Shown piece by piece: positions 44,955-56,979 of a DNA stretch of 64,000 nt. The translations under genes and the position numbers were made by a program. The notes below the pieces were generated by a model. It ran no database searches and was not told where the DNA came from. It was given only the letters and a program-made list of their open reading frames with translations. This DNA is from Escherichia coli (lineage in GTDB: Bacteria; Pseudomonadota; Gammaproteobacteria; Enterobacterales; Enterobacteriaceae): the NCBI RefSeq assembly GCF_044647545.1, contig NZ_CP172818.1. One strand, written 5' to 3'. Numbering within the stretch: position 1 is the first letter of the stretch; the number at the start of each line of letters is the position of its first letter.

Positions 44955-45103
44955 ATGCTATTCCGGCCTCGTTATTACACGTTATGGCCCCTGGAGGGTT
45001 GAAAAAAGAAACGCCCCGGTGAGCGGCTGCTCGTCCGGGGGCGCTGCATTGTACAAATTCTGGCGCACGGATGCCACGTTTGCACGTAGCATTTACGAAA
45101 TTA

Positions 45104-45535
45104 TTAACGGGTGCGCGGGCACACTTCGCCTTCGCCGAAGAAATAAGCGATTTCGCGAGCGGCAGATTCGACGGAATCAGAACCGTGGGTACCATTTTCG
45201 GTCAGGCTGTCAGCGTAATCAGCACGCAGAGTACCGGCCAGTGCGTTTGCCGGATTGGTCGCGCCCAGCAGATCGCGGTGACGCTGAACAGCATTTTCAC
45301 CTTCCAGCACGGAAACAACGATCGGGCCAGAAGTCATGAATTCAACCAGACCATCAAAGAACGGTTTTCCATCGTGTTCAGCATAAAAGCCACGAGCCTG
45401 TTCAACGGTCAGGTGCAGCATTTTGGTGCCGACAATTTTGAACCCTGCAGCTTCAAAGCGCGCAAAGATACTACCAATCACGTTTTTTGCTACCGCGTTC
45501 GGTTTGATGATGGAAAAAGTACGTTCAATAGCCAT
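45104..45535 (-). CDS. ndk: Nucleoside diphosphate kinase
   Basis: 143 aa; active-site NGTHGSDS. Confidence 0.95.
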
Positions 45536-45683
45536 TTTTACCTCTGTAAATTGTTCTGTTGTTGTCTGTACCAGCGTACGAGATGGCGCGGATTATAATG
45601 AGCAACAGAGCCGTTGACTATTGATGAAGGTAACATTTTTTTAAAATAAACCCAGTTTAAGCAACAATCAGGGGCAAAACAGA

Positions 45684-47996
45684 CTATTGCATGACAAATT
45701 TCACTGTCGCTATTTGCCCCACCTCATCCATCACCAGCAATTGATAATCGCCTTTATCCGTCAAATGCAGGGTCACGTTGCGCCCACGTTCAGTTAACGG
45801 TTCGCCGTTCAGAAACCACCAGCGTTCACCTGCCCCTCCACTTGATTGTAACGGCAAAGTCGCTTCCGCTGCGCCCGGTAAACGTTTAATAATCGCGCCA
45901 TCGCGCACACCTGTTAGCTGCAGCGGGAGTTGTGCATCGTGACCGTATGGCGGGCAAATTGTCGAGGCCGGTGGCAAGCGCACAGCGCGACGTTCTGATG
46001 CGGGCAGCCAGGGTTCCAGCGGTAGCGGCCAGACATTTATCATTTCTTGTCGCGCCTGAGGGCAATCAGCGGCAACACGTTTGCCGTTTTCATCCAGCCA
46101 GATGGGGAAACGAATGCCATTAATGCCTTCCTGCTCCGGCAGTAATAGAGTTGGCGGCTGACTCCCGTCCAGCAGCCAGGTTGCCAGGCGGCGGCGACAG
46201 TTACTGTCACCTTCCGGCAAAGACTGTCCGCCCGGCCAGCAGATAACGCCACGACTTACAGAGTCAGGACGTGGGTCTTCCGGCAGATTCGCACTGCGCG
46301 ACAGTAAGATATTATTGACCTGATTCAACAATGGTACGGCGCTGGCAAAGCCAAACTGACCAACAACGGGCGTGCCGTCCGGTCTGCCAGTCCAGATCCC
46401 AATGACATAGCGAGCGTTAACCCCAATCGCCCAGGCATCACGATAGCCATAGCTGGTGCCCGTTTTCCATGCCAGTGGGGCGACGCGCGGCAAGGCACCA
46501 TCCGGCAAGGGTTGCGCTTCATCAGCCATAATCCGGCGAATGATCCACGCAGCCCCCGACGACATTAAAGGCCGTTCAAGCAGCGGATCATCAGGCTGTA
46601 AGCGCAATTTACCTGCCTTGCCGTGGCGAGCAAACGCGGTATACGCTGCCGCCATATTTTCCAGTTTTGCACCAGCGCCGCCGAGAATGAGCGAAAGATT
46701 CGGCGCAGCACCGTTGGGCAAATATAACGGCAATCCAGCATTGCGTAACTTTGCCGCAAACCGTTTCGGTCCATAGGCTTCCAGCACCTGCACAGCAGGT
46801 AAGTTCAGCGATCGCACCAGCGCCTCACTCATGCTGATCGGCCCATGAAAACCGCTGTCAAAGTTGCCAGGTCGGTAATCACCGGTGCGTCGGGGGACGT
46901 CTTGCAACAGCGATGCCGGGTGGATCAAGCCTTCATCCAGCGCCAGACCATAAACAAACGGTTTGAGCACCGATCCTGGCGATCGGATCGCATTGACCAT
47001 ATCAACATGACCAAAGCGTGAATCATCGTTGAGATCAACCGATCCCACCCAGCCGCGAACACGCATATCGGTATGATCAACCACGATCATCGCCAGTGAG
47101 CTGCGCGGTGGCAATCGTCCTTTCCAGTTTTGCGCCAGTTCTTCCAGACGTCGTTGAAGACCGGCATCCAGCGTAGTAACGATTTTGTCGCTTTTGCTTT
47201 TACCGAGCATCATGCGCGAAAACAGCGGTGCCAGTTGCGGCATTTGTCGGGGTGCCAGCCAGATGGGTTCTTCCCTTGACTCTTTTACCTGCTCACGGGA
47301 CCACACACCTTGCACGGCCATCCTTTCGAGCACTTTATTACGCGCGGCTTCGGCACGTTCCGGCCAGCGATCCGGGCGCAGTCGGCTGGGCGCTTGCGGC
47401 AACACCGCCAGCATTGCCGCCTCGGAATAGCTTAAATTCGCAGGCGATTTTCCGAGATAAGCCCAACTTGCCGCACCGATCCCCTGCAACGTACCGCCAA
47501 ACGGAGCGCGGTTAAGATACAAGGTCAGAATTTCACGCTTAGACAGATGCCACTCCAGTTGCAACGCGCGCCAGAGCTGGCGAATTTTGCCGCCAAATGT
47601 TTTGGGGTGAGGATCAAGCAGACGAGCAACCTGCATAGTGAGCGTGCTGCCACCGGAAATAACCCTTCCCGAAGTGAGATCTTGCCATGCTGCGCGCGCC
47701 ACCGAGAATGGATTCACCCCCGGATGCTTCCAGAACCAGCGATCTTCATAATTGATCAGCGCTTCAAGGTAACGTGGAGAAACATCTTCGATTGTTACCG
47801 GATAACGCCAGATGCCTTCCGCATCGGCAAAGCGCCAGAGCGGCGTCCCATCCTGCGCCACAACCACTCGTGCGGGATTGACTTCATGCAGCGGTAGAGG
47901 CCAGAGTTTATCTGCTCCCCACGCTGCAAGAAAAAGGAGAAATGGCGCAGCTGCCAGCGTTATCCAGCAGCCGCGTTTGGTTAACAAGCGAGGCAT
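45684..47996 (-). CDS. pbpC: Penicillin-binding protein 1C (glycosyltransferase/transpeptidase-like)
   Basis: 770 aa; N-terminal TM; GT51 and transpeptidase regions; directly downstream of yfhM. Confidence 0.92.
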   Translation of the reverse strand: MPRLLTKRGCWITLAAAPFLLFLAAWGADKLWPLPLHEVNPARVVVAQDGTPLWRFADAEGIWRYPVTIEDVSPRYLEALINYEDRWFWKHPGVNPFSVARAAWQDLTSGRVISGGSTLTMQVARLLDPHPKTFGGKIRQLWRALQLEWHLSKREILTLYLNRAPFGGTLQGIGAASWAYLGKSPANLSYSEAAMLAVLPQAPSRLRPDRWPERAEAARNKVLERMAVQGVWSREQVKESREEPIWLAPRQMPQLAPLFSRMMLGKSKSDKIVTTLDAGLQRRLEELAQNWKGRLPPRSSLAMIVVDHTDMRVRGWVGSVDLNDDSRFGHVDMVNAIRSPGSVLKPFVYGLALDEGLIHPASLLQDVPRRTGDYRPGNFDSGFHGPISMSEALVRSLNLPAVQVLEAYGPKRFAAKLRNAGLPLYLPNGAAPNLSLILGGAGAKLENMAAAYTAFARHGKAGKLRLQPDDPLLERPLMSSGAAWIIRRIMADEAQPLPDGALPRVAPLAWKTGTSYGYRDAWAIGVNARYVIGIWTGRPDGTPVVGQFGFASAVPLLNQVNNILLSRSANLPEDPRPDSVSRGVICWPGGQSLPEGDSNCRRRLATWLLDGSQPPTLLLPEQEGINGIRFPIWLDENGKRVAADCPQARQEMINVWPLPLEPWLPASERRAVRLPPASTICPPYGHDAQLPLQLTGVRDGAIIKRLPGAAEATLPLQSSGGAGERWWFLNGEPLTERGRNVTLHLTDKGDYQLLVMDEVGQIATVKFVMQ

Positions 47997-50900
47997 TTAC
48001 GGTCTGACAATCAGCAAATCTTCAGCCGCGCCGGTCGCCCGCCATTGGGGAACATACATTGATTCCACCATCGGTTGCGGTACCTGATACGTTCCCGGCG
48101 TCACCGCCCGCGCCAGATACACCAGCGTTACCGGTTGGTATTCATCAACGGCAACCGCCGCCACAAAGCGATCGTCACGGAACTCAATGTGCTTAATGCT
48201 CGCCTGCTGCATCTGGTTCAGTAAGTTTTGCACTTCGCCACCACTTTGCTCCAGGCTGGCGCTACCGTTCGCCAGATTCTGGTTTTCCAGTTCCAGACCC
48301 GCAGGCAGCAGATCCACGACTAACGCATCCGGCACGCTGTTACTGGCTTTTACCTGCAACCAGACCAGCACCAGATCGCCGCTACGTAACGAGTCCAGCG
48401 ATTTGCTCTTACCATCAGTACCAAGAATATGACGCTCGATTTGCAGCACATTGTTCGCCGGTAAAGGTGCGGATTGCGGATAACCGCTGGCATCCACACG
48501 CAGCCATAACGGCTGATCGCCACTGTTGGTCACCTGCAAGGTGGCAAGTTGATCACTATTCAGATTGCTGTTTAGCGTTTTCTCGCCTGTCAGCGGCTCA
48601 GCTGAGAAAGAGGTTTGCGCCTGCCATTTACCCGGTAAATCCTGAACCGTACGGGCAGCCAGGAACAACGCGTTACTTTCCTGCGTCGATAGCCAGCGTT
48701 CACCAAACGCCTGCTGCGAAAGCGTATTCAGCAAAGTGTTCTGCTCATCGGGTAGCAGTTTATTTTCTTCCAGCAAGGAGAGCATTAACGCGTTGTCGCG
48801 CAGTGGGCTACCGTAATCACCCAGCCATTTCCGCTCATCATTACGCGGCGTTTTCAGCGCCAGCGCAATTGCTTCTTCACCACGCGTCGCATCACCCATG
48901 GTTTTCAGCGCAACGCCAAGTTGCAGCAGCGGTAAACCAGAAGCGGCATCTGCACGATGCTCCCAGATTTCACGCAGCGCACCCAGTGGAGCTTTTTGCT
49001 GACGGGCCAGCACCAGCGCAGCGTAAGACTGTACGGCGAATTTACTGGCTTTGAGATTATCCGCATACGGAATCGACATCATGCCCGGATCTTGTAAATA
49101 GCGCAGTAGACGCTCATTCCCCCGGTTAATGGCGTCTGTCGGCACGCTGTAACCCTGCTCACCTGCGCGGACCAGGAAATCCATCACGTAAGCCGTCAGC
49201 CAGTACTCTTCATCACCGTTTTTATCCCACAGCGCAAAGCCACCGTTATCACGTTGCATTTGCAGTAAACGAGAAATGCCGATATCGACTGCCGCACGGC
49301 GCTTCTCATCACTGTCGCCTTTGATGCCCAACGCCTGCAGTTGGGCTGCGTTGGTGTAAAGTGACGGGAACAGGCCGCTGGCGGTTTGCTCCAGACAACC
49401 GTACGGATACGCTTTTAACTCTTTGATATAACGTGCAATATTCAACGGTGGTTTGCCGCTCAACAACAATTGCCCTTCCAGCGTAACAGGCGAGAAGTTT
49501 TGCAATCCATCAGCTGGAATCGCCCATGTCTCACCAGGCTGCAACGCCGTACCGTAATTGACCGTTTGTGCCGGGAATGCCGGACGGACGCCGATTTTCC
49601 ACTGTTTATGCTGATCGGCAACGGTTTCCCCCGGTAACGCTAACCCGCTAATGGTGGCCTGAATGTCACCATCGCCAAACCCCGTCAGAGCACGCACCGG
49701 GATAAACAGCGTAGTACGCACCCCTGGCGCTAATTCAACGGCTGCGGGTGAATCGCTGACCAGTTCAAGCAAACCACTGGCGGTCAGGGCAACGTTCAGT
49801 TTTTGCGGTTTATCGGTAAGATTAGTGATATCCAGCGTCAGACGCGAGGTATCGCCACTCGCCATAAAGCGCGGCATGTTCAGTTCAGCAATCACCGGTG
49901 CGGCAACTATCACTTTGCTTTCGTTGCTACCGAAGTCATCTGCCGTCCAGGCTTGCGCCATGACGCGCAATTCACCGTTAAAATCGCCAATCGGCAGTGC
50001 AACCGAGCCTTCGCCCTGTTCGTTGAGCGTTACCGGCAGCGCCTGCTGCGCGACAATATTGACGTGATTGACCGGCGGTTTACCACCACGTTTCAGCTCA
50101 TCACCATCGCCACCGAAACGCAGAGCTGCCAGACGCCCCTGACCTTCAATAACCTGACCGTAAATATCGTAAATGTCTGCGCCATAGCGTTTCTGACCAA
50201 AGAACGCCTGCCACGGATCTGGCGTAACGTAGCCAGTAATATTCAGCACACCACTATCAACGGCAGACACCAGCACATTCACCTGTTTAGGCTTCTCGCC
50301 ATTTTTAGTGCTGGCTTTAATTTTCACGGTTAATGGTTGATTGGGACGCATTTTTGCTGGTGTTTCCAGCGCCAGATCGAGGCGACGGTTTTCATCACCA
50401 AGCGGCAGATGCAACACACCAACCGCGCGTTTTGGCGTCGCGGAGCGAGATTTATCGCCAGGACGCACCACCAGCGTACTCAAATAAAGATCATGACGAT
50501 TCCAGGTTTTATTGACCGGAATCGTCAGATCCAGCCCTTGAGCCGGAACATCAATCTCTTGCCACCACAGCGGCCCTTCACTGGACTCGACCATCGCATA
50601 ACCTTTACCCGCCGTTGGCGCAGCAATATGCAACTTAATGGTATCGCCAGGGCGATAACTGGCTTTATCCAGTTTCAGCGTGACACGGTCGGGTCGCACG
50701 GCACCGCTCCCGTCGCTGTTGTCCTGCCAGCTATAGCCAGCCCAGAAACGCACACTACTGACCGCTTCATTCGGCGCTTTGACTTCCAGACGATAAGCGC
50801 CCCACTCTACCGGGAAACTGACCTTGCCGGTTTCGTCCGCTTTCAGATCCAGAGTTTGTTCATTTTCGATCAGATCTTTTTGATCAAACTGTGACTGCCA

Positions 50901-52955
50901 GCCTTCATCTTCTGACCAGTTCCAGTAGTAATCGCGGCGTTCGCGAATCAGGCGCACCTGCAAGCCCGACACGGCTTTTTTTACGCCTTGCGCATCGCTA
51001 TAAACGATGTCAAAAGCGGCGTTACTGCCTTCATCAACAATGGGCTGTTTCACAGTGCTGTCAGTGCGATAATCGTAAGCCGATTTCGAGGCGAACTGCG
51101 GACGGATCCCCGGCAATGCATCGGCAGGCCAGATAGCCTGCTCAGCGCGGCGCGTCACCGGGCGACCGCCCGATTCCAGCAAACTACCCTGGAAAATAAC
51201 CTGTAATGGGGAATGCGTTTCCTTCCACTGGCTTTCTGTAGAAACTTCGCCACGCCCTTTATCATCCAGCGTCAACTGAACTTCATCCAGCGTGCGGGAA
51301 AGATTTTCGGCAGCTATCTCGCCGAATTCGAAACCAGGTAAGGCTGACACAGCTTCACGCAGTGGGCGCAGGAAAAGTTGCCCTTGCAAAATATTACCAT
51401 TAGCAGGCGCACCATACAGGTAGTACCCCACCACGGAGAATTTCACTTCATCTTTCGGCGTTAGCGGGGTTTTCTCACCGGTCAGATTCAGCGCCATGCG
51501 CTCTGGCATAAAATCTTCGACGTGGAAATCCCACATCCGGTACTGGTTATCGCCCGTGTTAGCGCGAATATGCCACATACCGGTTGCCGCATTGCTATCG
51601 AGTGGCCAGGTAAAGTGGTAGAGGCCATTCTCCGGCTGACTAACGACGCTCCTGAGTACCTGCCCGTCGGGTTTAATCACGTCTAACTTGATGGGTTGAT
51701 CGGGCAATGCTTTACCGTCTGCATCACGCAGCAAACCATTGAGGATGACCGTTTCACCCGGGCGATAAAGATCGCGCGGGCCAAACATGAAAAACTGTTT
51801 GCTATAGCCCGGCGCGCCAGCAATGTTAAATTCCGCTAAGTCCAGCGCCGGGAGTTTTAAATCGAGTAGCGTTGTCTGACCGTCTTTACGCGCCAGCAGT
51901 AATGCCGCATTTTTATCATTTTCCAGCTGCACATGCCCCTGAGCATCACTGGTTGCCTGAGTCAGAGTCTGCCCTTTCTCATTTAATAAAGAGACTTCTA
52001 TTCCTTGCTGGGCCGCGCCGTTTTCCAGACTTTGGGTAAAGATATCCAGACGATTGTGATAACGGTGAGCTGAAACGCCGATATCACTTAACGTAAACAG
52101 CGTCGCGGGATTACTGTAATCGTAACGTCCAGCCTGATTCATCACAGCCAGATACACGCCTGCCTGCTGAAGCGGTTTGATATCGCCCAGCGGCAGCAAT
52201 AATTTTTCACGGGTGTTACGCGCAGGATTGAGATCAAACCGTCCAGTGTAGACCAGATCCGCCATCTGCAGCAGTTTGTCTGACTGCCAGTTCGCCAGCG
52301 AATTGCGGTATTCCCATTGGCTAATGAAAGCGGGCAGTGATTCTGGTTTCACACGGAAGAAGTTAACATCGACATTGTTAACGTTGAGCGCCATTACCGG
52401 CAGCCCTTCAATAACTTTACCAGGTAACAACGAACCACGGCTGGCAAAACCGACGCTGGGTTGGATATCACGGGTAGTTATAGTTTTTTCGTCATCTTTA
52501 CTGAAGGTTGCGTTGTTGAGTGCTTTGACCTCCTTGCCAATAGTGACGATCAAATCACGTTTCGGTTCGAGGTGGCGTAAACGCAACTCTTTAAGATTAT
52601 CTGACAGCTCCCAGGCACCATCCACTTTGCCGCTTTTCTTATCGACGACATGGATAACGCGTGAGAAATCCTGATCCGGGTCGAGAGGAATGGAGAACGT
52701 CAGCACCAGCGTGGCTGCGCCATCAAGTTGAACTTCAGAGAGATCCAGCAATGTCAGCGCCTTACCGGCACTCTGTTGGGCCAGTTTTTGTCGCTCCGGC
52801 GCGGAAAGTTTTGCTGAACTCACGTTTTCTGAAGAGGCCGCTTTAGTAACTTCAGAAGGCGCATCTTTTTTCACCGCTGTTGGCGCGTTATCGTTGTTGT
52901 CGCACCCTGCCAGCGCCAGCATTAGCATGCAGGCGGCTACGCGTAACTTTTTCAT
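47997..52955 (-). CDS. yfhM: Alpha-2-macroglobulin family lipoprotein (protease trap)
   Basis: 1652 aa; lipobox LALAGCDNN; thioester motif GCLEQ; stop abuts pbpC start. Confidence 0.92.
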   Translation of the reverse strand: MKKLRVAACMLMLALAGCDNNDNAPTAVKKDAPSEVTKAASSENVSSAKLSAPERQKLAQQSAGKALTLLDLSEVQLDGAATLVLTFSIPLDPDQDFSRVIHVVDKKSGKVDGAWELSDNLKELRLRHLEPKRDLIVTIGKEVKALNNATFSKDDEKTITTRDIQPSVGFASRGSLLPGKVIEGLPVMALNVNNVDVNFFRVKPESLPAFISQWEYRNSLANWQSDKLLQMADLVYTGRFDLNPARNTREKLLLPLGDIKPLQQAGVYLAVMNQAGRYDYSNPATLFTLSDIGVSAHRYHNRLDIFTQSLENGAAQQGIEVSLLNEKGQTLTQATSDAQGHVQLENDKNAALLLARKDGQTTLLDLKLPALDLAEFNIAGAPGYSKQFFMFGPRDLYRPGETVILNGLLRDADGKALPDQPIKLDVIKPDGQVLRSVVSQPENGLYHFTWPLDSNAATGMWHIRANTGDNQYRMWDFHVEDFMPERMALNLTGEKTPLTPKDEVKFSVVGYYLYGAPANGNILQGQLFLRPLREAVSALPGFEFGEIAAENLSRTLDEVQLTLDDKGRGEVSTESQWKETHSPLQVIFQGSLLESGGRPVTRRAEQAIWPADALPGIRPQFASKSAYDYRTDSTVKQPIVDEGSNAAFDIVYSDAQGVKKAVSGLQVRLIRERRDYYWNWSEDEGWQSQFDQKDLIENEQTLDLKADETGKVSFPVEWGAYRLEVKAPNEAVSSVRFWAGYSWQDNSDGSGAVRPDRVTLKLDKASYRPGDTIKLHIAAPTAGKGYAMVESSEGPLWWQEIDVPAQGLDLTIPVNKTWNRHDLYLSTLVVRPGDKSRSATPKRAVGVLHLPLGDENRRLDLALETPAKMRPNQPLTVKIKASTKNGEKPKQVNVLVSAVDSGVLNITGYVTPDPWQAFFGQKRYGADIYDIYGQVIEGQGRLAALRFGGDGDELKRGGKPPVNHVNIVAQQALPVTLNEQGEGSVALPIGDFNGELRVMAQAWTADDFGSNESKVIVAAPVIAELNMPRFMASGDTSRLTLDITNLTDKPQKLNVALTASGLLELVSDSPAAVELAPGVRTTLFIPVRALTGFGDGDIQATISGLALPGETVADQHKQWKIGVRPAFPAQTVNYGTALQPGETWAIPADGLQNFSPVTLEGQLLLSGKPPLNIARYIKELKAYPYGCLEQTASGLFPSLYTNAAQLQALGIKGDSDEKRRAAVDIGISRLLQMQRDNGGFALWDKNGDEEYWLTAYVMDFLVRAGEQGYSVPTDAINRGNERLLRYLQDPGMMSIPYADNLKASKFAVQSYAALVLARQQKAPLGALREIWEHRADAASGLPLLQLGVALKTMGDATRGEEAIALALKTPRNDERKWLGDYGSPLRDNALMLSLLEENKLLPDEQNTLLNTLSQQAFGERWLSTQESNALFLAARTVQDLPGKWQAQTSFSAEPLTGEKTLNSNLNSDQLATLQVTNSGDQPLWLRVDASGYPQSAPLPANNVLQIERHILGTDGKSKSLDSLRSGDLVLVWLQVKASNSVPDALVVDLLPAGLELENQNLANGSASLEQSGGEVQNLLNQMQQASIKHIEFRDDRFVAAVAVDEYQPVTLVYLARAVTPGTYQVPQPMVESMYVPQWRATGAAEDLLIVRP

Positions 52956-53161
52956 TTTTCATCCCTGCCACAATGGCCCGTTAGCAACGTCGAATAATTA
53001 TTATGCGTGAGAATTTACGTTATGTAATTCAGTATCACGCCCATACAATCCGAATTTTAGTGAGAATTGTGGCTCAGACAGCCAAATCAGCCTCTTTTGC
53101 TTGTCGCTTTTCACTAAACATCCGACAATTTAGCCTAACCCCGGCAAAAATGGAGATGCCT

Positions 53162-54007
53162 ATGTCCACGACATGGTTTGTAGGAGCCGACTGGCTCGCC
53201 GAACATATTGATGACCCGGAAATTCAGATTATCGATGCCCGCATGGCGTCGCCTGGACAGGAAGATCGTAACGTTGCTCAGGAGTATCTGAATGGACATA
53301 TTCCCGGCGCAGTGTTTTTTGATATCGAAGCGCTTTCTGATCACACTTCCCCGCTTCCGCACATGCTGCCGCGCCCGGAAACGTTCGCCGTGGCGATGCG
53401 TGAGTTAGGCGTTAACCAGGATAAGCACCTGATTGTCTATGACGAAGGTAATCTTTTCTCAGCCCCACGAGCATGGTGGATGCTGCGCACCTTTGGTGTA
53501 GAGAAAGTGTCGATTCTGGGGGGTGGACTTGCAGGCTGGCAGCGCGATGTTCTGCTGTTAGAAGAAGGTGCAGTAGAGCTGCCGGAAGGAGAGTTTAACG
53601 CCACGTTTAATCCTGAAGCCGTGGTGAAAGTCACCGATGTGTTATTGGCAAGCCATGAAAATACGGCGCAAATTATTGATGCCCGCCCGGCTGCACGTTT
53701 TAACGCAGAAGTTGATGAACCTCGCCCAGGTTTACGTCGCGGACATATTCCCGGTGCATTGAACGTTCCGTGGACGGAACTGGTGCGCGAAGGCGAATTA
53801 AAAACGACCGATGAACTGGATGCGATATTTTTTGGTCGCGGCGTCAGCTATGACAAACCGATTATCGTCAGCTGCGGCTCTGGTGTAACGGCAGCCGTGG
53901 TTTTGTTGGCACTCGCGACGCTGGATGTGCCAAACGTGAAACTGTACGACGGCGCATGGAGTGAATGGGGCGCACGGGCAGATTTACCGGTTGAGCCATT
54001 GAAATAA
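53162..54007 (+). CDS. sseA: 3-mercaptopyruvate sulfurtransferase (tandem rhodanese)
   Basis: 281 aa from ATG 53162 (MSTTWFVGADWLAEH...); catalytic Cys in CGSGVTA. Confidence 0.92.
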   Translation: MSTTWFVGADWLAEHIDDPEIQIIDARMASPGQEDRNVAQEYLNGHIPGAVFFDIEALSDHTSPLPHMLPRPETFAVAMRELGVNQDKHLIVYDEGNLFSAPRAWWMLRTFGVEKVSILGGGLAGWQRDVLLLEEGAVELPEGEFNATFNPEAVVKVTDVLLASHENTAQIIDARPAARFNAEVDEPRPGLRRGHIPGALNVPWTELVREGELKTTDELDAIFFGRGVSYDKPIIVSCGSGVTAAVVLLALATLDVPNVKLYDGAWSEWGARADLPVEPLK

Positions 54008-54023
54008 GCTTTTTACAGGCAAT

Positions 54024-54051
54024 AAAAAACCGCCGAATTTGGCGGTTTTTT
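54024..54051. terminator. sseA terminator hairpin (copy 1 of a duplicated hairpin)
   Basis: aaaaaaccgcc-gaattt-ggcggtttttt; an about 80% identical copy recurs at 54295-54325. Confidence 0.7.
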
Positions 54052-54294
54052 ATTGCTGGTCTGTTCCCTCAATATACCAAACACCCACGACACAAACTCC
54101 TAACCTCTTTCAACAAAAAATTTCTTTATTATATCCACTGCGGCCCTTTCCGCCAACTTAAAAAATGTTCGGTAATAAAATAACCTGGCTTATTAGTCCG
54201 AATTCGGACAAATATAAACAAATCAGCTCAATATTAAAAATACTAATCGGTAAAAGATATTACTTAAACGTGTAAATTCACTTTCTTTAAACAA

Positions 54295-54325
54295 CAAAAA
54301 ACCGCCAAAATCAGGCGGTTTTTTG
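54295..54325. repeat. Second copy of the A-run/hairpin/T-run element (terminator-like)
   Basis: aaaaaaccgcc-aaaatcag-ggcggtttttt followed by gttgctggt, as after copy 1. Confidence 0.6.
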
Positions 54326-54474
54326 TTGCTGGTTTGGTTCGCGGCCTTTCCAGCAGATTGGCTTGTGTTGCATGAGCAACGCAGGTGCTTCACAGCAAAG
54401 CAATACTCGCCAGTAACTCTCTTTTTGTCAAGCGAAAGAGAGTAATCATTGTTTATTTAGCGTATTATCGACAC

Positions 54475-54780
54475 CGGCCCTTTCCGCCGTCTCGCAAACG
54501 GGCGCTGGCTTAAGGAAAGGATGTTCCATGGCCGTAAATGCAGGTGTTTCACAGCGCTTGCTATCGCGGCAATATCGCCAGTGGTGCTGTCGTGATGCGG
54601 TCTTCGCATGGACCGCACAATGAAGATACGGAGCTTTTGTATCGTACTTATTGTTTCTGGTGCGCTGTTAACCGAGGTAAATAATAACCGGAGTCTCTCC
54701 GGCAACAATTTATTGGTGGTTAACAACCTTCAGAACAGCAGGTAAGCCCGAATGCCGCCCTTTGGGGCGGCATATTTTAG
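54475..54780 (+). ncRNA. ryfA: ryfA-like small RNA / small-protein mRNA (boundaries approximate)
   Basis: -10-like TATTAT at 54463-54468; transcript would run to the terminator atgccgccc-tttg-gggcggcat + T-tract at 54752-54780; about 305 nt; position between sseA and sseB. Confidence 0.45.
54521..54595 (+). CDS. Candidate 24-aa hydrophobic small protein within the ryfA-like transcript (type-I toxin-like)
   Basis: Strong SD AAGGAAAGG directly upstream of ATG; MFHGRKCRCFTALAIAAISPVVLS*. Alternative ORF 54620..54745 (41 aa, MKIRSFCIVLIVSGALL...) has no obvious SD. Confidence 0.3.
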   Translation: MFHGRKCRCFTALAIAAISPVVLS

Positions 54781-55553
54781 ATTATCCGGTTCTGTTTAAA
54801 GTCACGCAAAAAACCACCCCAGCGACGTTCATAGAATGGCACAATATGTTCGGTAATAAAGTGGCTAATTCCTTTTTCCCCTTTTTTCACCTGACAAATA
54901 TCGATGGGTTCATCGCCAGGTAATGTATCGGTCGCTACACTTCCCGCCGCCTGAATAATTTCTTCGATATCACCATCGGCTTCAATGCCAATAAGTAAAT
55001 TAGGCTGTGCCTCTTTGTTCTCTTTAATTGAACAAATAAAAGCACGCTTCACCGGCTTAATAGTTTTAAATAAGGTGGTGAGAGAATCAATCATTTGTGC
55101 TGGTGGCTCTGCGACTTCCGATAATATCAGCGATTCACCGCCCTCCAGTACTTCCTGGCTGCTCAGCGGATTTCCTTCTTCACCAATCAACAAACTGATT
55201 TCACGCGGCATAAATTCTTTACCGGTTGGCAGTTTGGCATTAAGGAAGAGCGTTTCGCCAAGGGTCATCTCAAACAATGTGCGAACGGGCATTACGACAA
55301 ATGCCTGTTCGTCTTCAACCGCCTGTTGAAGTGCTTCTAACGAGGTAAAAAAAGGAATGACGCTGGTGCCGTCTTCTTTTTCCCAGTGCTGTAAATCAAG
55401 CGCGCTATCTTCAACCACAGCCTCGCCCTGCGCCGCCGTACCCGGCACCCAGACGGTGGATTCCAGTAGAGTACGGAAAAAGGCCGGGCGGTGCGCCGGT
55501 TCGGTTGCTGCTTTTTCCAGCAGGTCTTCAAGTTCATTTTTTGTTTCGGACAT
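54777..55553 (-). CDS. sseB: Protein SseB (enhanced serine sensitivity)
   Basis: 258 aa from ATG at 55553 (MSETKNELEDLLEKAATEP...); stop overlaps ryfA-like terminator. Confidence 0.88.
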   Translation of the reverse strand: MSETKNELEDLLEKAATEPAHRPAFFRTLLESTVWVPGTAAQGEAVVEDSALDLQHWEKEDGTSVIPFFTSLEALQQAVEDEQAFVVMPVRTLFEMTLGETLFLNAKLPTGKEFMPREISLLIGEEGNPLSSQEVLEGGESLILSEVAEPPAQMIDSLTTLFKTIKPVKRAFICSIKENKEAQPNLLIGIEADGDIEEIIQAAGSVATDTLPGDEPIDICQVKKGEKGISHFITEHIVPFYERRWGGFLRDFKQNRII

Positions 55554-55695
55554 AAGAACCACAATTCATTCAACGTTCGGGGCACAAGTGCCTGATGCGC
55601 CATACTTATCAGGCCTACAAGGGATTCACAATTTGTTGAATTTGCAATACTTTGTAGGCCGGATATGGCGTTTACGCCGCATCCGGCATATTAGT

Positions 55696-56979
55696 TTACG
55701 CCGTTAACAGATTAGCAATCGTGCGCACACCAAGTCCCGTAGCACCCGCAGACCACTGTTCAACCGGCGCTTTACGGTAAGTCGCCGAGCAGTCGATATG
55801 CAGCCAGCCTTGCTGATAGTTCTCAACAAAGTGCGACAGGAAGCCCGCCGCCGTGCTCGCGCCTGCCGGGTACGCCGCGCTTCCGGTATTGTTCAGTTCG
55901 GCAAAGTTAGACGGCAGCTGGCTGCGGTGGAACTCCGCCAGCGGCAGACGCCAGAACGGTTCATTCTCCTGCGCGGCACTCGCCAGCAAGCGACCGGCAA
56001 GCGCATCGTCAAAACTGAACAGCGCGTGATAATCATTACCCAGCGCAGTTTTCGCCGCCCCGGTGAGGGTCGCCGCATCAATGATCAGTTCCGGTTTCTG
56101 CGCACTGGCATCAATCAGGCCATCGGCCAGCACCAGACGCCCTTCCGCATCAGTGTTCATCACTTCAACTTTTTTACCGTTGCGATAGGTAATAATATCG
56201 CCCAGTTTGAACGCGTTGCCGCTGATCAGGTTATCCGCACAGCAGAGGAACAGCTTCACGCGCTTGTTCAGTCCGCGCGTAATGGCAAACGCCAGCGCCC
56301 CGGTAACCGTTGCCGCGCCGCCCATGTCCGACTTCATCGAGTCCATAAATGCGGTCTGTTTGATGCTGTAGCCGCCGGAGTCAAAAGTGATGCCTTTACC
56401 AACCAGGCACGCGTACACTGGCGCTTCTTTATCGCCAGTTGGGTTGTAATCCAGCGCCAGCAATACCGGAGAACGTTCTGAACCGCGTCCGACGGTGTGC
56501 AGCCCCATATAACCTTGATCACGCAGATCTTCGCCTTTGGTGATCCGGTAAGTCACACAATCGCCCGCGACATTGCTGATCAGATCAACAGCACGCTGTG
56601 CCAGTTGCGATGGCCCCAGTTCTTCTGCCGGTGCGTTGATGGTGTCACGCACCCAGTCGATGATCATCAGGCGGTTATCCAGTTCCTGGCGCTGGGCATC
56701 GTCCAGATCCGGCCACTCCACTTTACGCGTGCCTTTCGGGGCTTTGTAACCTTGCCAGAATGCCCAGCAGCGATCCGCATCCCAGCCTTCTCCGCTTAGC
56801 TGAACATGCTTGATGCCCAGACCATCAATCTTGCGCGCCGCACGCTGGATAAGCCCCAGATCGTCTGCCCCGTTCAAATGCAGGGTAATGCCATCATTAT
56901 TAATGCTGTAAGTTGCTTTTTCTCCCCAGCGCGCATCGGCAGGTTGGATAGAGAGGGTAATTTTCATCGCTTCTGTCAT
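55696..56979 (-). CDS. pepB: Peptidase B (M17 leucyl aminopeptidase family)
   Basis: 427 aa from ATG at 56979 ([10 protein letters not shown]...); M17 signature NTDAEGRL. Confidence 0.94.

Follow-up and report, generated by a model that had tools for sequence, protein, structure and literature searches.

Known timP/TimR systems and the sseA-sseB spacer

The timP/TimR type I toxin-antitoxin system is already known, and its mechanism has been published in detail. In Salmonella enterica, timP (formerly ryfA or STnc2070) encodes TimP, a small protein that localizes to the inner membrane and is toxic when overexpressed, and translation of TimP is repressed by TimR, the 5' end of which forms an 18-nucleotide (nt) pairing with timP more than 60 nt upstream of the ribosome-binding site (RBS) (PMC7667032). 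The Shine-Dalgarno (SD) sequence of timP is trapped in stem-loop 4 (SL4) of the 5' untranslated region (UTR) and is freed by a pseudoknot together with a long-range interaction (PMC11228461, PMC13000454). Destabilization of the lower part of SL1 abolishes translation and compensatory changes restore it, indicating that the lower SL1 is needed rather than inhibitory (PMC11228461). A related locus in Shigella dysenteriae encodes the sibling pairs RyfA1/RyfB1 and RyfA2/RyfB2, wherein RyfB1 acts only on RyfA1 and an antitoxin-type transcript of about 100 nt is produced (PMC5333039). Overexpression of RyfA in Escherichia coli slows growth (PMC4606813), and an antisense RNA of about 95-100 nt, ECS011/IS129, has been detected in K-12 (PMC3175480). 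Here the spacer between sseA and sseB in a 64-kb stretch of E. coli DNA (contig NZ_CP172818.1, hereafter the window) is compared with these systems.

The sseA-sseB spacer of the window, which extends over 769 base pairs (bp) from the sseA stop codon (54007) to the sseB stop codon (54777), very probably contains one intact timP/TimR module and the wreck of a second, tandemly duplicated module. A preliminary description of this DNA had divided the spacer into two sibling units, each with a -10 element and a leader bearing CCTTTCC. Unit 2 (downstream) was taken to be a small-toxin mRNA whose RBS is occluded in cis by its own leader, and unit 1 (upstream) a small RNA (sRNA) that could repress unit 2 by pairing in trans. 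Every motif listed in that description was found in its place by a direct sequence check. The interpretation is partly supported by the present analysis, having been right about the RNA family and the leader helix and wrong about the open reading frame (ORF), the role of the SD sequence, the antitoxin, and the status of unit 1.

The timP toxin mRNA

The features of unit 2 are as follows.

54463-54468, plus strand: timP -10 element TATTAT, 7 nt upstream of the +1 (54476) equivalent to that of Rfam and Salmonella
54476-54778, plus strand: timP (ryfA) toxin mRNA, type-2 allele (Rfam RF00126)
54479-54520, plus strand: SL1 of the timP 5' UTR, with a lower stem formed by CCUUUCC (54479-54485) and GGAAAGG (54514-54520)
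54537-54556 (timP +62 to +81), plus strand: predicted TimR-binding site in SL2, matching the Salmonella site more than 60 nt upstream of the RBS (PMC7667032, PMC11228461)
54597-54616, plus strand: SL4 (GCGGUC...GACCGC), present in the Rfam consensus and in the fold and predicted to sequester the TimP SD region, a function taken from published work (PMC11228461, PMC13000454)
54620-54745, plus strand: timP coding sequence (CDS) for the 41-amino-acid (aa) inner-membrane toxin TimP (MKIRSFCIVLIVSGALL...; NF040796)
54752-54778, plus strand: timP intrinsic terminator, from a terminator scan (9-bp stem with 7 GC pairs, followed by a U-run)

The proposal that unit 2 is the small-toxin mRNA of the ryfA locus, under repression by a small RNA, is borne out by several lines of evidence. 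The Rfam ryfA model (RF00126) matches positions 54474-54778 of the plus strand over its full length (model positions 1-296 of 296) with 314.5 bits, compared to a gathering threshold of 80, and unit 2 is 100% identical to timP2 of the E. coli genome FDAARGOS_497. In the RefSeq annotation of E. coli genomes, the corresponding position carries a 126-nt timP CDS, and the product matches the NCBIfam family toxic_TimP (NF040796) with 79.8 bits (cutoff 45). When the +1 is set at 54476, the timP AUG lies at +145, the same offset as in Salmonella (PMC7667032). The terminator of timP is convergent with the stop codon of sseB.

The conservation of these elements was assessed using at least 15 enterobacterial timP loci, obtained from a scan of genome contigs for GCGGTCNNNGCANNGACCGCAC that is permissive and yields mostly chance matches in GC-rich genomes. 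The TimP ORF is kept in all 17 homologues compared, and SL4 is invariant across them. Alignment of unit 2 to the Rfam ryfA consensus structure leaves a single non-canonical pair, and SL1, SL2, and SL4 are reproduced by the computed fold of the timP RNA of the window. It is proposed that the timP mRNA would start near 54476, that its 144-nt 5' UTR would fold into SL1 through SL4, and that SL4 would trap the SD sequence of the 41-aa TimP ORF.

The pairing between CCUUUCC and GGAAAGG pointed out in the preliminary description is real. The Rfam consensus structure and the minimum-free-energy fold both show it as the outer helix of SL1. Among 14 homologues, the paired fraction of cells is 97.8% in this lower stem and 98.8% for the three SL1 helices together, with little covariation. 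Covariation within the stem is uninformative because five of its seven pairs never vary. The function initially assigned to the helix does not hold, as GGAAAGG is located 100 nt upstream of the TimP AUG and is not the SD sequence of the toxin, which sits in SL4. Consequently, the helix is the base of SL1 and not a clamp on the toxin RBS.

Similar to the Salmonella system, the locus in the window is found at the sseA-sseB site, belongs to RF00126, and has the same 5' UTR architecture with the TimP ORF at +145, along with a divergent upstream antitoxin gene whose RNA uses its 5' end to pair with SL2 over about 18-20 nt, a considerable distance upstream of the RBS. In contrast to Salmonella, this locus descends from a tandem duplication, its TimP has 41 rather than 38 aa, and it is known here from sequence.

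The TimR antitoxin

The repressor suggested by the pairing evidence and by the Salmonella work (PMC7667032) is TimR, encoded on the opposite strand between the two units, rather than unit 1 as had been supposed.

54431 to 54403, minus strand: predicted timR promoter, with a -35 element TTGACA (54431-54426), a 17-nt spacer, and a -10 element GAGTAT (54408-54403)
54396 to 54297, minus strand: timR (RyfB-type) antitoxin sRNA gene of about 100 nt, identified from its pairing with timP, its fold, and the terminator T2; contains GGAAAGG
54292-54328, both strands: T2, a bidirectional terminator (inverted repeat I4, 15-nt arms, 100% complementary)

The candidate gene lies directly upstream of timP on the opposite strand without overlapping it, and its RNA ends in an intrinsic terminator consisting of a 10-bp hairpin followed by a U-run. 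Its position and polarity agree with those of TimR and RyfB1 (PMC7667032, PMC5333039), and its fold has a z-score of -3.4. The promoter hexamers of timR and the -10 element of timP stand back to back, about 30 nt apart. The start of timR is probably near 54396, where the complementarity to timP begins. Pairing was evaluated using contiguous-helix scans; whole-RNA RNAduplex predictions were rejected, as they gave long, loop-ridden duplexes that were no better than those of shuffled sequences. In these scans, the 5'-terminal 19-20 nt of TimR pair contiguously with timP +62 to +81, with 17 Watson-Crick pairs compared to a best of 13 among 300 shuffles. TimR would thus be transcribed divergently from the TTGACA promoter and end at the T2 hairpin, and its 5' end would pair with the SL2 loop region, blocking the structural switch needed for initiation. 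T2 would end TimR on the minus strand as well as any unit-1 transcript on the plus strand.

The timR gene also accounts for a third CCTTTCC in the spacer (54345-54351), which lies within it. When read on the plus strand, the timR gene aligns with the timP 5' UTR (54335-54445 versus 54470-54600; local alignment z = 5.1), and the third CCTTTCC recurs because timR derives from the timP 5' region as a direct repeat that has since decayed and is read antisense. The antitoxin thus appears to have originated by partial tandem duplication of the toxin leader, transcribed antisense. In two other genera, Citrobacter amalonaticus (locus L089, 8069-8340) and Yersinia (L125, 5125-5409; L080, 4554-4837), the first approximately 60 nt of the ryfA matches have no SL1 alignment. 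These starts look like the timR-gene repeat (GGTTCGCGGCCTTTCCAGC...) fused to the 3' half of SL2, which suggests deletions via recombination between the timR repeat and the timP 5' UTR. In Yersinia similis, the Rfam family Ysr224 (Yersinia sRNA 224; L080, 4361-4467; 133.9 bits) is found directly upstream of ryfA, where a TimR gene would be expected, and its annotation places it on the same strand.

The timP/TimR arrangement resembles that of tisB/istR-1, zorO/orzO, shoB/ohsC, and dinQ/agrB, wherein toxin and antitoxin genes are adjacent, divergent, and non-overlapping, the pairing is limited to part of the 5' UTR, and the toxin RBS is structurally sequestered. Unlike these four pairs, timP requires no nucleolytic processing and is activated by the pseudoknot and long-range switch (PMC11228461, PMC13000454).

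Small open reading frames in the timP leader

Two small reading frames are present in the timP leader, and neither matches an NCBIfam family.

54521-54595, plus strand: 24-aa ORF, which exists as a reading frame and is not conserved
54528-54623, plus strand: 31-aa upstream ORF (uORF), with an AUG at +53 that is 6 nt after AAGGA and a UGA that overlaps the timP AUG (AUGA)

The preliminary description took the 24-aa ORF to be the toxin, which is at odds with the identification of the 41-aa TimP. The 24-aa ORF is present in 7 of the 17 timP homologues and is missing or interrupted in the other 10, including the sister copy timP1. The frame has a stop at codon 6 in timP1 and in Escherichia whittamii, and it has no ATG in Citrobacter, Yersinia, and Erwinia, although GGAAAGG is conserved there. 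Furthermore, GGAAAGG abuts the ATG at 54521 and cannot be the SD sequence of this ORF because the spacing is zero. The 24-aa ORF is not the toxin and is most likely not a gene.

A different role for the leader would be that one of these frames is translated from an SD sequence (GGAAAGGA) gated by the CCUUUCC leader and is coupled to timP in E. coli in the manner of mok/hok. Of the two frames, the 31-aa uORF at 54528 is a more plausible candidate than the 24-aa ORF at 54521; its overlap with the TimP AUG gives a mok/hok-like layout. Consistent with such coupling, the uORF has an AAGGA sequence appropriately placed ahead of its AUG, its stop codon overlaps the timP start codon, its SD-like sequence is buried in the SL1 stem in both the Rfam consensus and the fold, and its frame is open in Escherichia type-2 alleles, in one Citrobacter genome, and in Superficieibacter. 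However, the +53 AUG is replaced by GCG in timP1-type alleles and by GTG in K-12, and the frame closes early in Yersinia, in one Rahnella genome, and in Salmonella (homologue comparison; PMC11228461), where the leader uORF has 8 codons rather than the long, overlapping form seen in the window. Knockout of the start codon of the Salmonella +53 uORF, the positional homologue, had no effect on timP translation, and disruption of the lower SL1 reduced translation rather than raising it (PMC11228461). The zero spacing and poor conservation of the 24-aa ORF, as well as the lack of a family match for either ORF, likewise count against translation of the leader. Taken together, a gated leader ORF is very unlikely, and sequestration of the TimP SD sequence in SL4 is preferred.

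Tandem duplication of the timP/TimR module

The homologies, architecture, and complementarities of the spacer were established in this analysis, and its repeat structure is real and the product of segmental duplication rather than chance. The TATTAT element occurs at 54127-54132 and 54463-54468, and the 13-mer GGCCCTTTCCGCC follows at 54142-54154 and 54476-54488. The 13-mer has no further match in the 64 kb even when one mismatch is allowed, with 0.05 matches expected in the window and two or more copies in 0 of 100 shuffles. Together with the preceding -10 region, the repeat extends over 23 nt with 87% identity (family D1). The A-run/hairpin/T-run elements at 54024-54063 and 54297-54336 form repeat D2, with 78% identity over 40 nt, and both are perfect or near-perfect palindromes (inverted repeats I3 and I4), making them bidirectional terminators. 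CCTTTCC itself is not over-represented in the whole window (6 occurrences versus 7.0 expected); four of the six fall within 375 nt of this spacer, and this local clustering, which includes 54345-54351 and has its complement GGAAAGG at 54514-54520, is due to paralogy. Consequently, the common -10 elements, leaders, and terminators of the two units reflect paralogy and not regulatory design.

The parental architecture can be seen in other E. coli genomes. Genomes with the full duplication, such as FDAARGOS_497, match the window with 100.000% identity over 45000-54063 and with 99.8-99.9% identity from 54162 onward. In these genomes the spacer has the order T1, timR1, timP1, sseB' (a partial SseB pseudogene according to PGAP), an AT-rich stretch, an sseA' 3' remnant, T2, timR2, and timP2. 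In the window, a stretch of 98 nt takes the place of 502 nt of this architecture that comprise timR1, timP1, and the beginning of sseB'. The first terminator is retained.

54019-54056, both strands: T1, a palindromic bidirectional intrinsic terminator after sseA (inverted repeat I3, 19-nt arms, 95% complementary; forms repeat D2 with T2)

T1 is identical in all aligned E. coli loci and doubles as the terminator of timR1 in the parental architecture. Exact-protein look-ups with SseA and YfhM recovered the parental lineage and no genome with the variant of the window.

The spacer containing IS128, the Rfam family that covers most of unit 1, is present in about 1,755 of 5,426 complete E. coli genomes, and the rest have a short form with a single module. 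The short form is ancestral, as E. whittamii, Escherichia sp. E1V33, and more distant enterics carry a single ryfA without IS128. In a duplicated genome the cognate RNAs pair with one another (17 Watson-Crick bp for timR1:timP1 and 20 bp for timR2:timP2), whereas the crossed pairs form at most 11 bp. This cognate-specific pairing agrees with the action of RyfB1 on RyfA1 alone (PMC5333039), and the window keeps the cognate type-2 timR/timP pair. The parental arrangement of two tandem timR-timP modules with pair-specific complementarity is also that of the S. dysenteriae siblings. Relative to these siblings, the window keeps the downstream type-2 module and a stump that carries the type-1 promoter allele. 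Unlike in Shigella, the upstream module is destroyed, with timR1 and all but 13 nt of timP1 gone, and no pair of sibling RNAs is left.

K-12 is a deletion derivative of the same architecture, in which a timP-type promoter and 13 nt of leader are joined directly to sseB' and the timR copy upstream is kept. Two timR copies are found in K-12 W3110 (locus L001, 1036-1500). The distal copy, upstream of IS128, forms 20 bp with K-12 timP, while the copy adjacent to timP is a type-1 orphan that forms at most 11 bp with it; K-12 timP looks chimeric, with a type-1 promoter and a type-2 SL2. The window therefore resembles the IS128 (RF00125)/IS129-ECS011 region of K-12 in having a timP-type -10 element and 13 nt of leader fused to the sseB' remnant, and in both genomes the -10 and +1 to +13 are joined to nearly the same point of that remnant. 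The opposite-strand RNA of about 95-100 nt in K-12 corresponds by position to TimR. The two loci differ in that K-12 has a timR copy upstream of the stump and a direct junction, whereas the window has an orphan 68-nt segment, a filler of about 10 nt, and the opposite promoter allele. The spacer is a rearrangement hot spot, other examples being an IS200/IS605 transposase inserted in the spacer of E. coli strain 1190 and a truncated 28-aa timP1 with a longer spacer in another genome (L010).

Unit 1 and IS128

The features of unit 1 are as follows.

54127-54154, plus strand: unit 1 core, the TATTAT -10 element and the first 13 nt of the former timP1 mRNA (repeat D1, type-1 allele)
54138-54338, plus strand: extent of Rfam IS128 (RF00125), covering the unit 1 stump, the sseB'/sseA' spacer, and T2
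54162-54254, plus strand: IS128 body, an sseB 3'-end remnant followed by an AT-rich spacer (a PGAP partial SseB pseudogene in sister genomes; locus L004, 2122-2208)
54255-54291, plus strand: decayed copy of the sseA 3' end directly before T2, from local alignment

A sibling relationship between units 1 and 2 does underlie the repeat, although the window retains only 23 nt of the former timP copy. Positions 54132-54154 are 100% identical to the type-1 timP1 allele and the rest of the replaced stretch has no match, such that the two units have 23 nt in common (-10 to +13) and are not two near-full-length, near-identical copies. The remainder of unit 1 can be traced to the flanking genes. The start of the IS128 body has homology to sseB (repeat D6, 18 nt, 94% identical to 54843-54860; local alignment z = 3.5), and 54255-54336 aligns with the sseA 3' end and T1 (53980-54063) with z = 12.8. 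The IS128 model matches the window with 188.4 bits against a gathering score of 80, the first 35 model positions (5') aligning poorly. On a full-duplication genome, the same model scores 213 bits and maps to the debris between timP1 and T2. These alignments suggest that Rfam IS128 represents junction debris of the timPR tandem duplication and that unit 1 is a scar with a leftover -10 element and start site. The stump of timP1 is fused to this debris, in which pieces of the 3' ends of sseB and sseA flank the AT-rich spacer and a copy of the sseA terminator follows. The 36-aa ORF of unit 1 is strain-specific, with a stop codon in K-12 and a frameshift in sister genomes, and an exact-product look-up found no record of its product in public assemblies.

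The trans pairing previously attributed to unit 1 is not supported. The unit 1 motif has the same sense as that of timP and cannot pair with the timP CCUUUCC, leaving GGAAAGG as its only possible partner. The best helix between unit 1 and TimR has 8 bp (one G-U) and involves the GGAAAGG-containing stretch, which is within the shuffled expectation. The best helix with timP has 10 bp (one G-U) and is unrelated to the motif, which itself forms about 7 bp with the timP GGAAAGG; none of these exceeds the shuffled controls. These results bear directly on the idea that unit 1 (IS128) is a live sibling sRNA, transcribed from the TATTAT promoter to T2, that uses its CCUUUCC-containing 5' end as a trans-acting decoy or modulator of GGAAAGG in timP (+39 to +45) or TimR (nt 45-52). 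Such an RNA would be consistent with the retention of the -10 element, start-site region, and terminator, with the above-threshold Rfam match, with the persistence of the IS128 spacer in 1,755 of 5,426 E. coli genomes, and with the preservation of exactly +1 to +13 in both K-12 and this genome. In addition, the original 2002 Northern blot gave a 90-95-nt signal, obtained with a double-stranded probe (reported in PMC3175480). However, strand-specific Northern blots in K-12 detected no IS128 RNA, leading the authors to call IS128 an artefact or only conditionally expressed (PMC3175480), and overexpression of IS128 had no biofilm, motility, or fimbrial phenotype (PMC4606813). Further, the body of unit 1 is pseudogene debris without a significant fold (z = -1.2), IS128 is lacking in about two thirds of E. 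coli and in other Escherichia species, and the native region upstream of the promoter has been replaced in this genome. The intramolecular SL1 at the extreme 5' end would also leave a 7-bp competitor in trans little chance. A live sibling sRNA is thus exceedingly improbable, and the interpretation of unit 1 as a duplication scar is favored.

The 98-nt replacement

The replacement corresponds to positions 54064-54161 of the window and carries, in addition to the retained timP1 stump, two segments of its own.

54064-54131, no strand assigned: orphan 68-nt segment (26 A, 22 C, 1 G, 19 T) in place of timR1 and the upstream timP1 promoter
54155-54161, no strand assigned: junction filler (AACTTAA...) between the timP1 stump and the sseB' remnant, with parental identity resuming at 54162 (BLAST)

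The orphan segment is the most G-poor 68-mer in the window. Searches of 5,426 E. coli genomes and of plasmids, phages, and metagenomes found no counterpart to it or to the junction filler, and searches for the exact products of the ORFs spanning it gave no match either; the junction between the timP1 stump and sseB' was not found in metagenomes. Derivation of the segment from the deleted 502 nt by hypermutation or inversion was considered and rejected, as no score in plain or reduced alphabets exceeded that of the best shuffle (z no greater than 3.0). The segment is not known to resemble the FRT, lox, or att sequences of recombineering scars. The sequence CCAAACACCCACGACACAAACTCCTAACC is provided as a k-mer for tracing the donor lineage of the replacement.

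One explanation for the replacement is that it arose as an assembly or sequencing artefact through collapse of the 682-bp tandem repeat, the real genome having a full timR1-timP1. The flanks are indeed identical to those of full-duplication genomes, the replaced stretch is unique among all collections searched, and tandem repeats that are about 90% identical tend to misassemble. Collapse would be expected to yield a chimeric timP, however, rather than 68 nt of unrelated G-poor sequence, and the 23 retained nt keep their proper order and belong to the expected type-1 allele. The adjoining IS128 body also differs from sister genomes by a 1-nt deletion, which fits a tract that was imported or has diverged. 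An artefact is therefore judged quite improbable, and loss of the first module is considered genuine.

It is also conceivable that the orphan segment and its junction form a promoter on the minus strand for a C-poor RNA of about 98 nt (54121-54024) that ends at T1 and replaces TimR1 with a new specificity. A sigma-70 match facing T1, TTGGCG (54156-54151) and TATAAT (54133-54128) separated by 17 nt, agrees at 10 of 12 positions and is the only strict match in 53950-54850. Both hexamers are made in part by window-specific bases, and the resulting RNA would have a perfect terminator, would fold better than shuffled sequences (z = -3.2), and would sit exactly where timR1 was. On the other hand, a single promoter-like match is no more than shuffles provide (mean 1.6), the terminator contributes much of the fold z-score, and the RNA has no above-chance complementarity to timP, IS128, or TimR. 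The sequence does not recur in the collections searched, which leaves nothing to compare it with for conservation. A replacement antitoxin is accordingly regarded as unlikely, and the segment is treated as part of the wreck of the first module.

Several points weigh against the overall interpretation of one intact module beside a wrecked one. The mechanistic statements depend on Salmonella experiments, and the start sites, toxicity, translation mechanism, and lack of unit 1 expression are carried over to this strain from work in Salmonella, Shigella, and K-12. The 68 nt upstream of unit 1 match no sequence in the collections searched, the loss of copy 1 is hard to retrace, and no source could be shown for the AT-rich middle of the IS128 body. 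With its -10 element retained, unit 1 might yet be transcribed in this strain. Finally, the leader left in K-12 and in this genome is exactly 13 nt long in both, with opposite promoter alleles, which could reflect selection rather than decay. The stump might then be under selection for a short-leader IS128 RNA, or for the divergent minus-strand RNA to which the window-specific junction seems to give rise, and such an RNA would tune the balance of timP and TimR under particular conditions, but it is highly improbable that the stump is alive in this sense. A simpler reading of the common 13-nt leader is one deletion in an ancestor, after which gene conversion acted between the repeats.

Outside this spacer, a REP-type palindromic element between sseB and pepB (55657-55701) gives a sub-threshold Rfam match to naRNA4/CssrE (37.8 versus 59.5 bits).

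Implications

In this strain, the first timP/TimR module has given way to a 98-nt stretch that is unique among the collections searched, while the duplicated modules from which the locus descends constitute orthogonal toxin-antitoxin pairs. The TimR copy that perfectly matches timP in K-12 is the distal one, which matters when "timR" is deleted in E. coli. IS128, long listed as an sRNA without a known function, would be explained as a scar of the timPR duplication together with a leftover toxin promoter, which argues for retiring IS128 as an sRNA gene.

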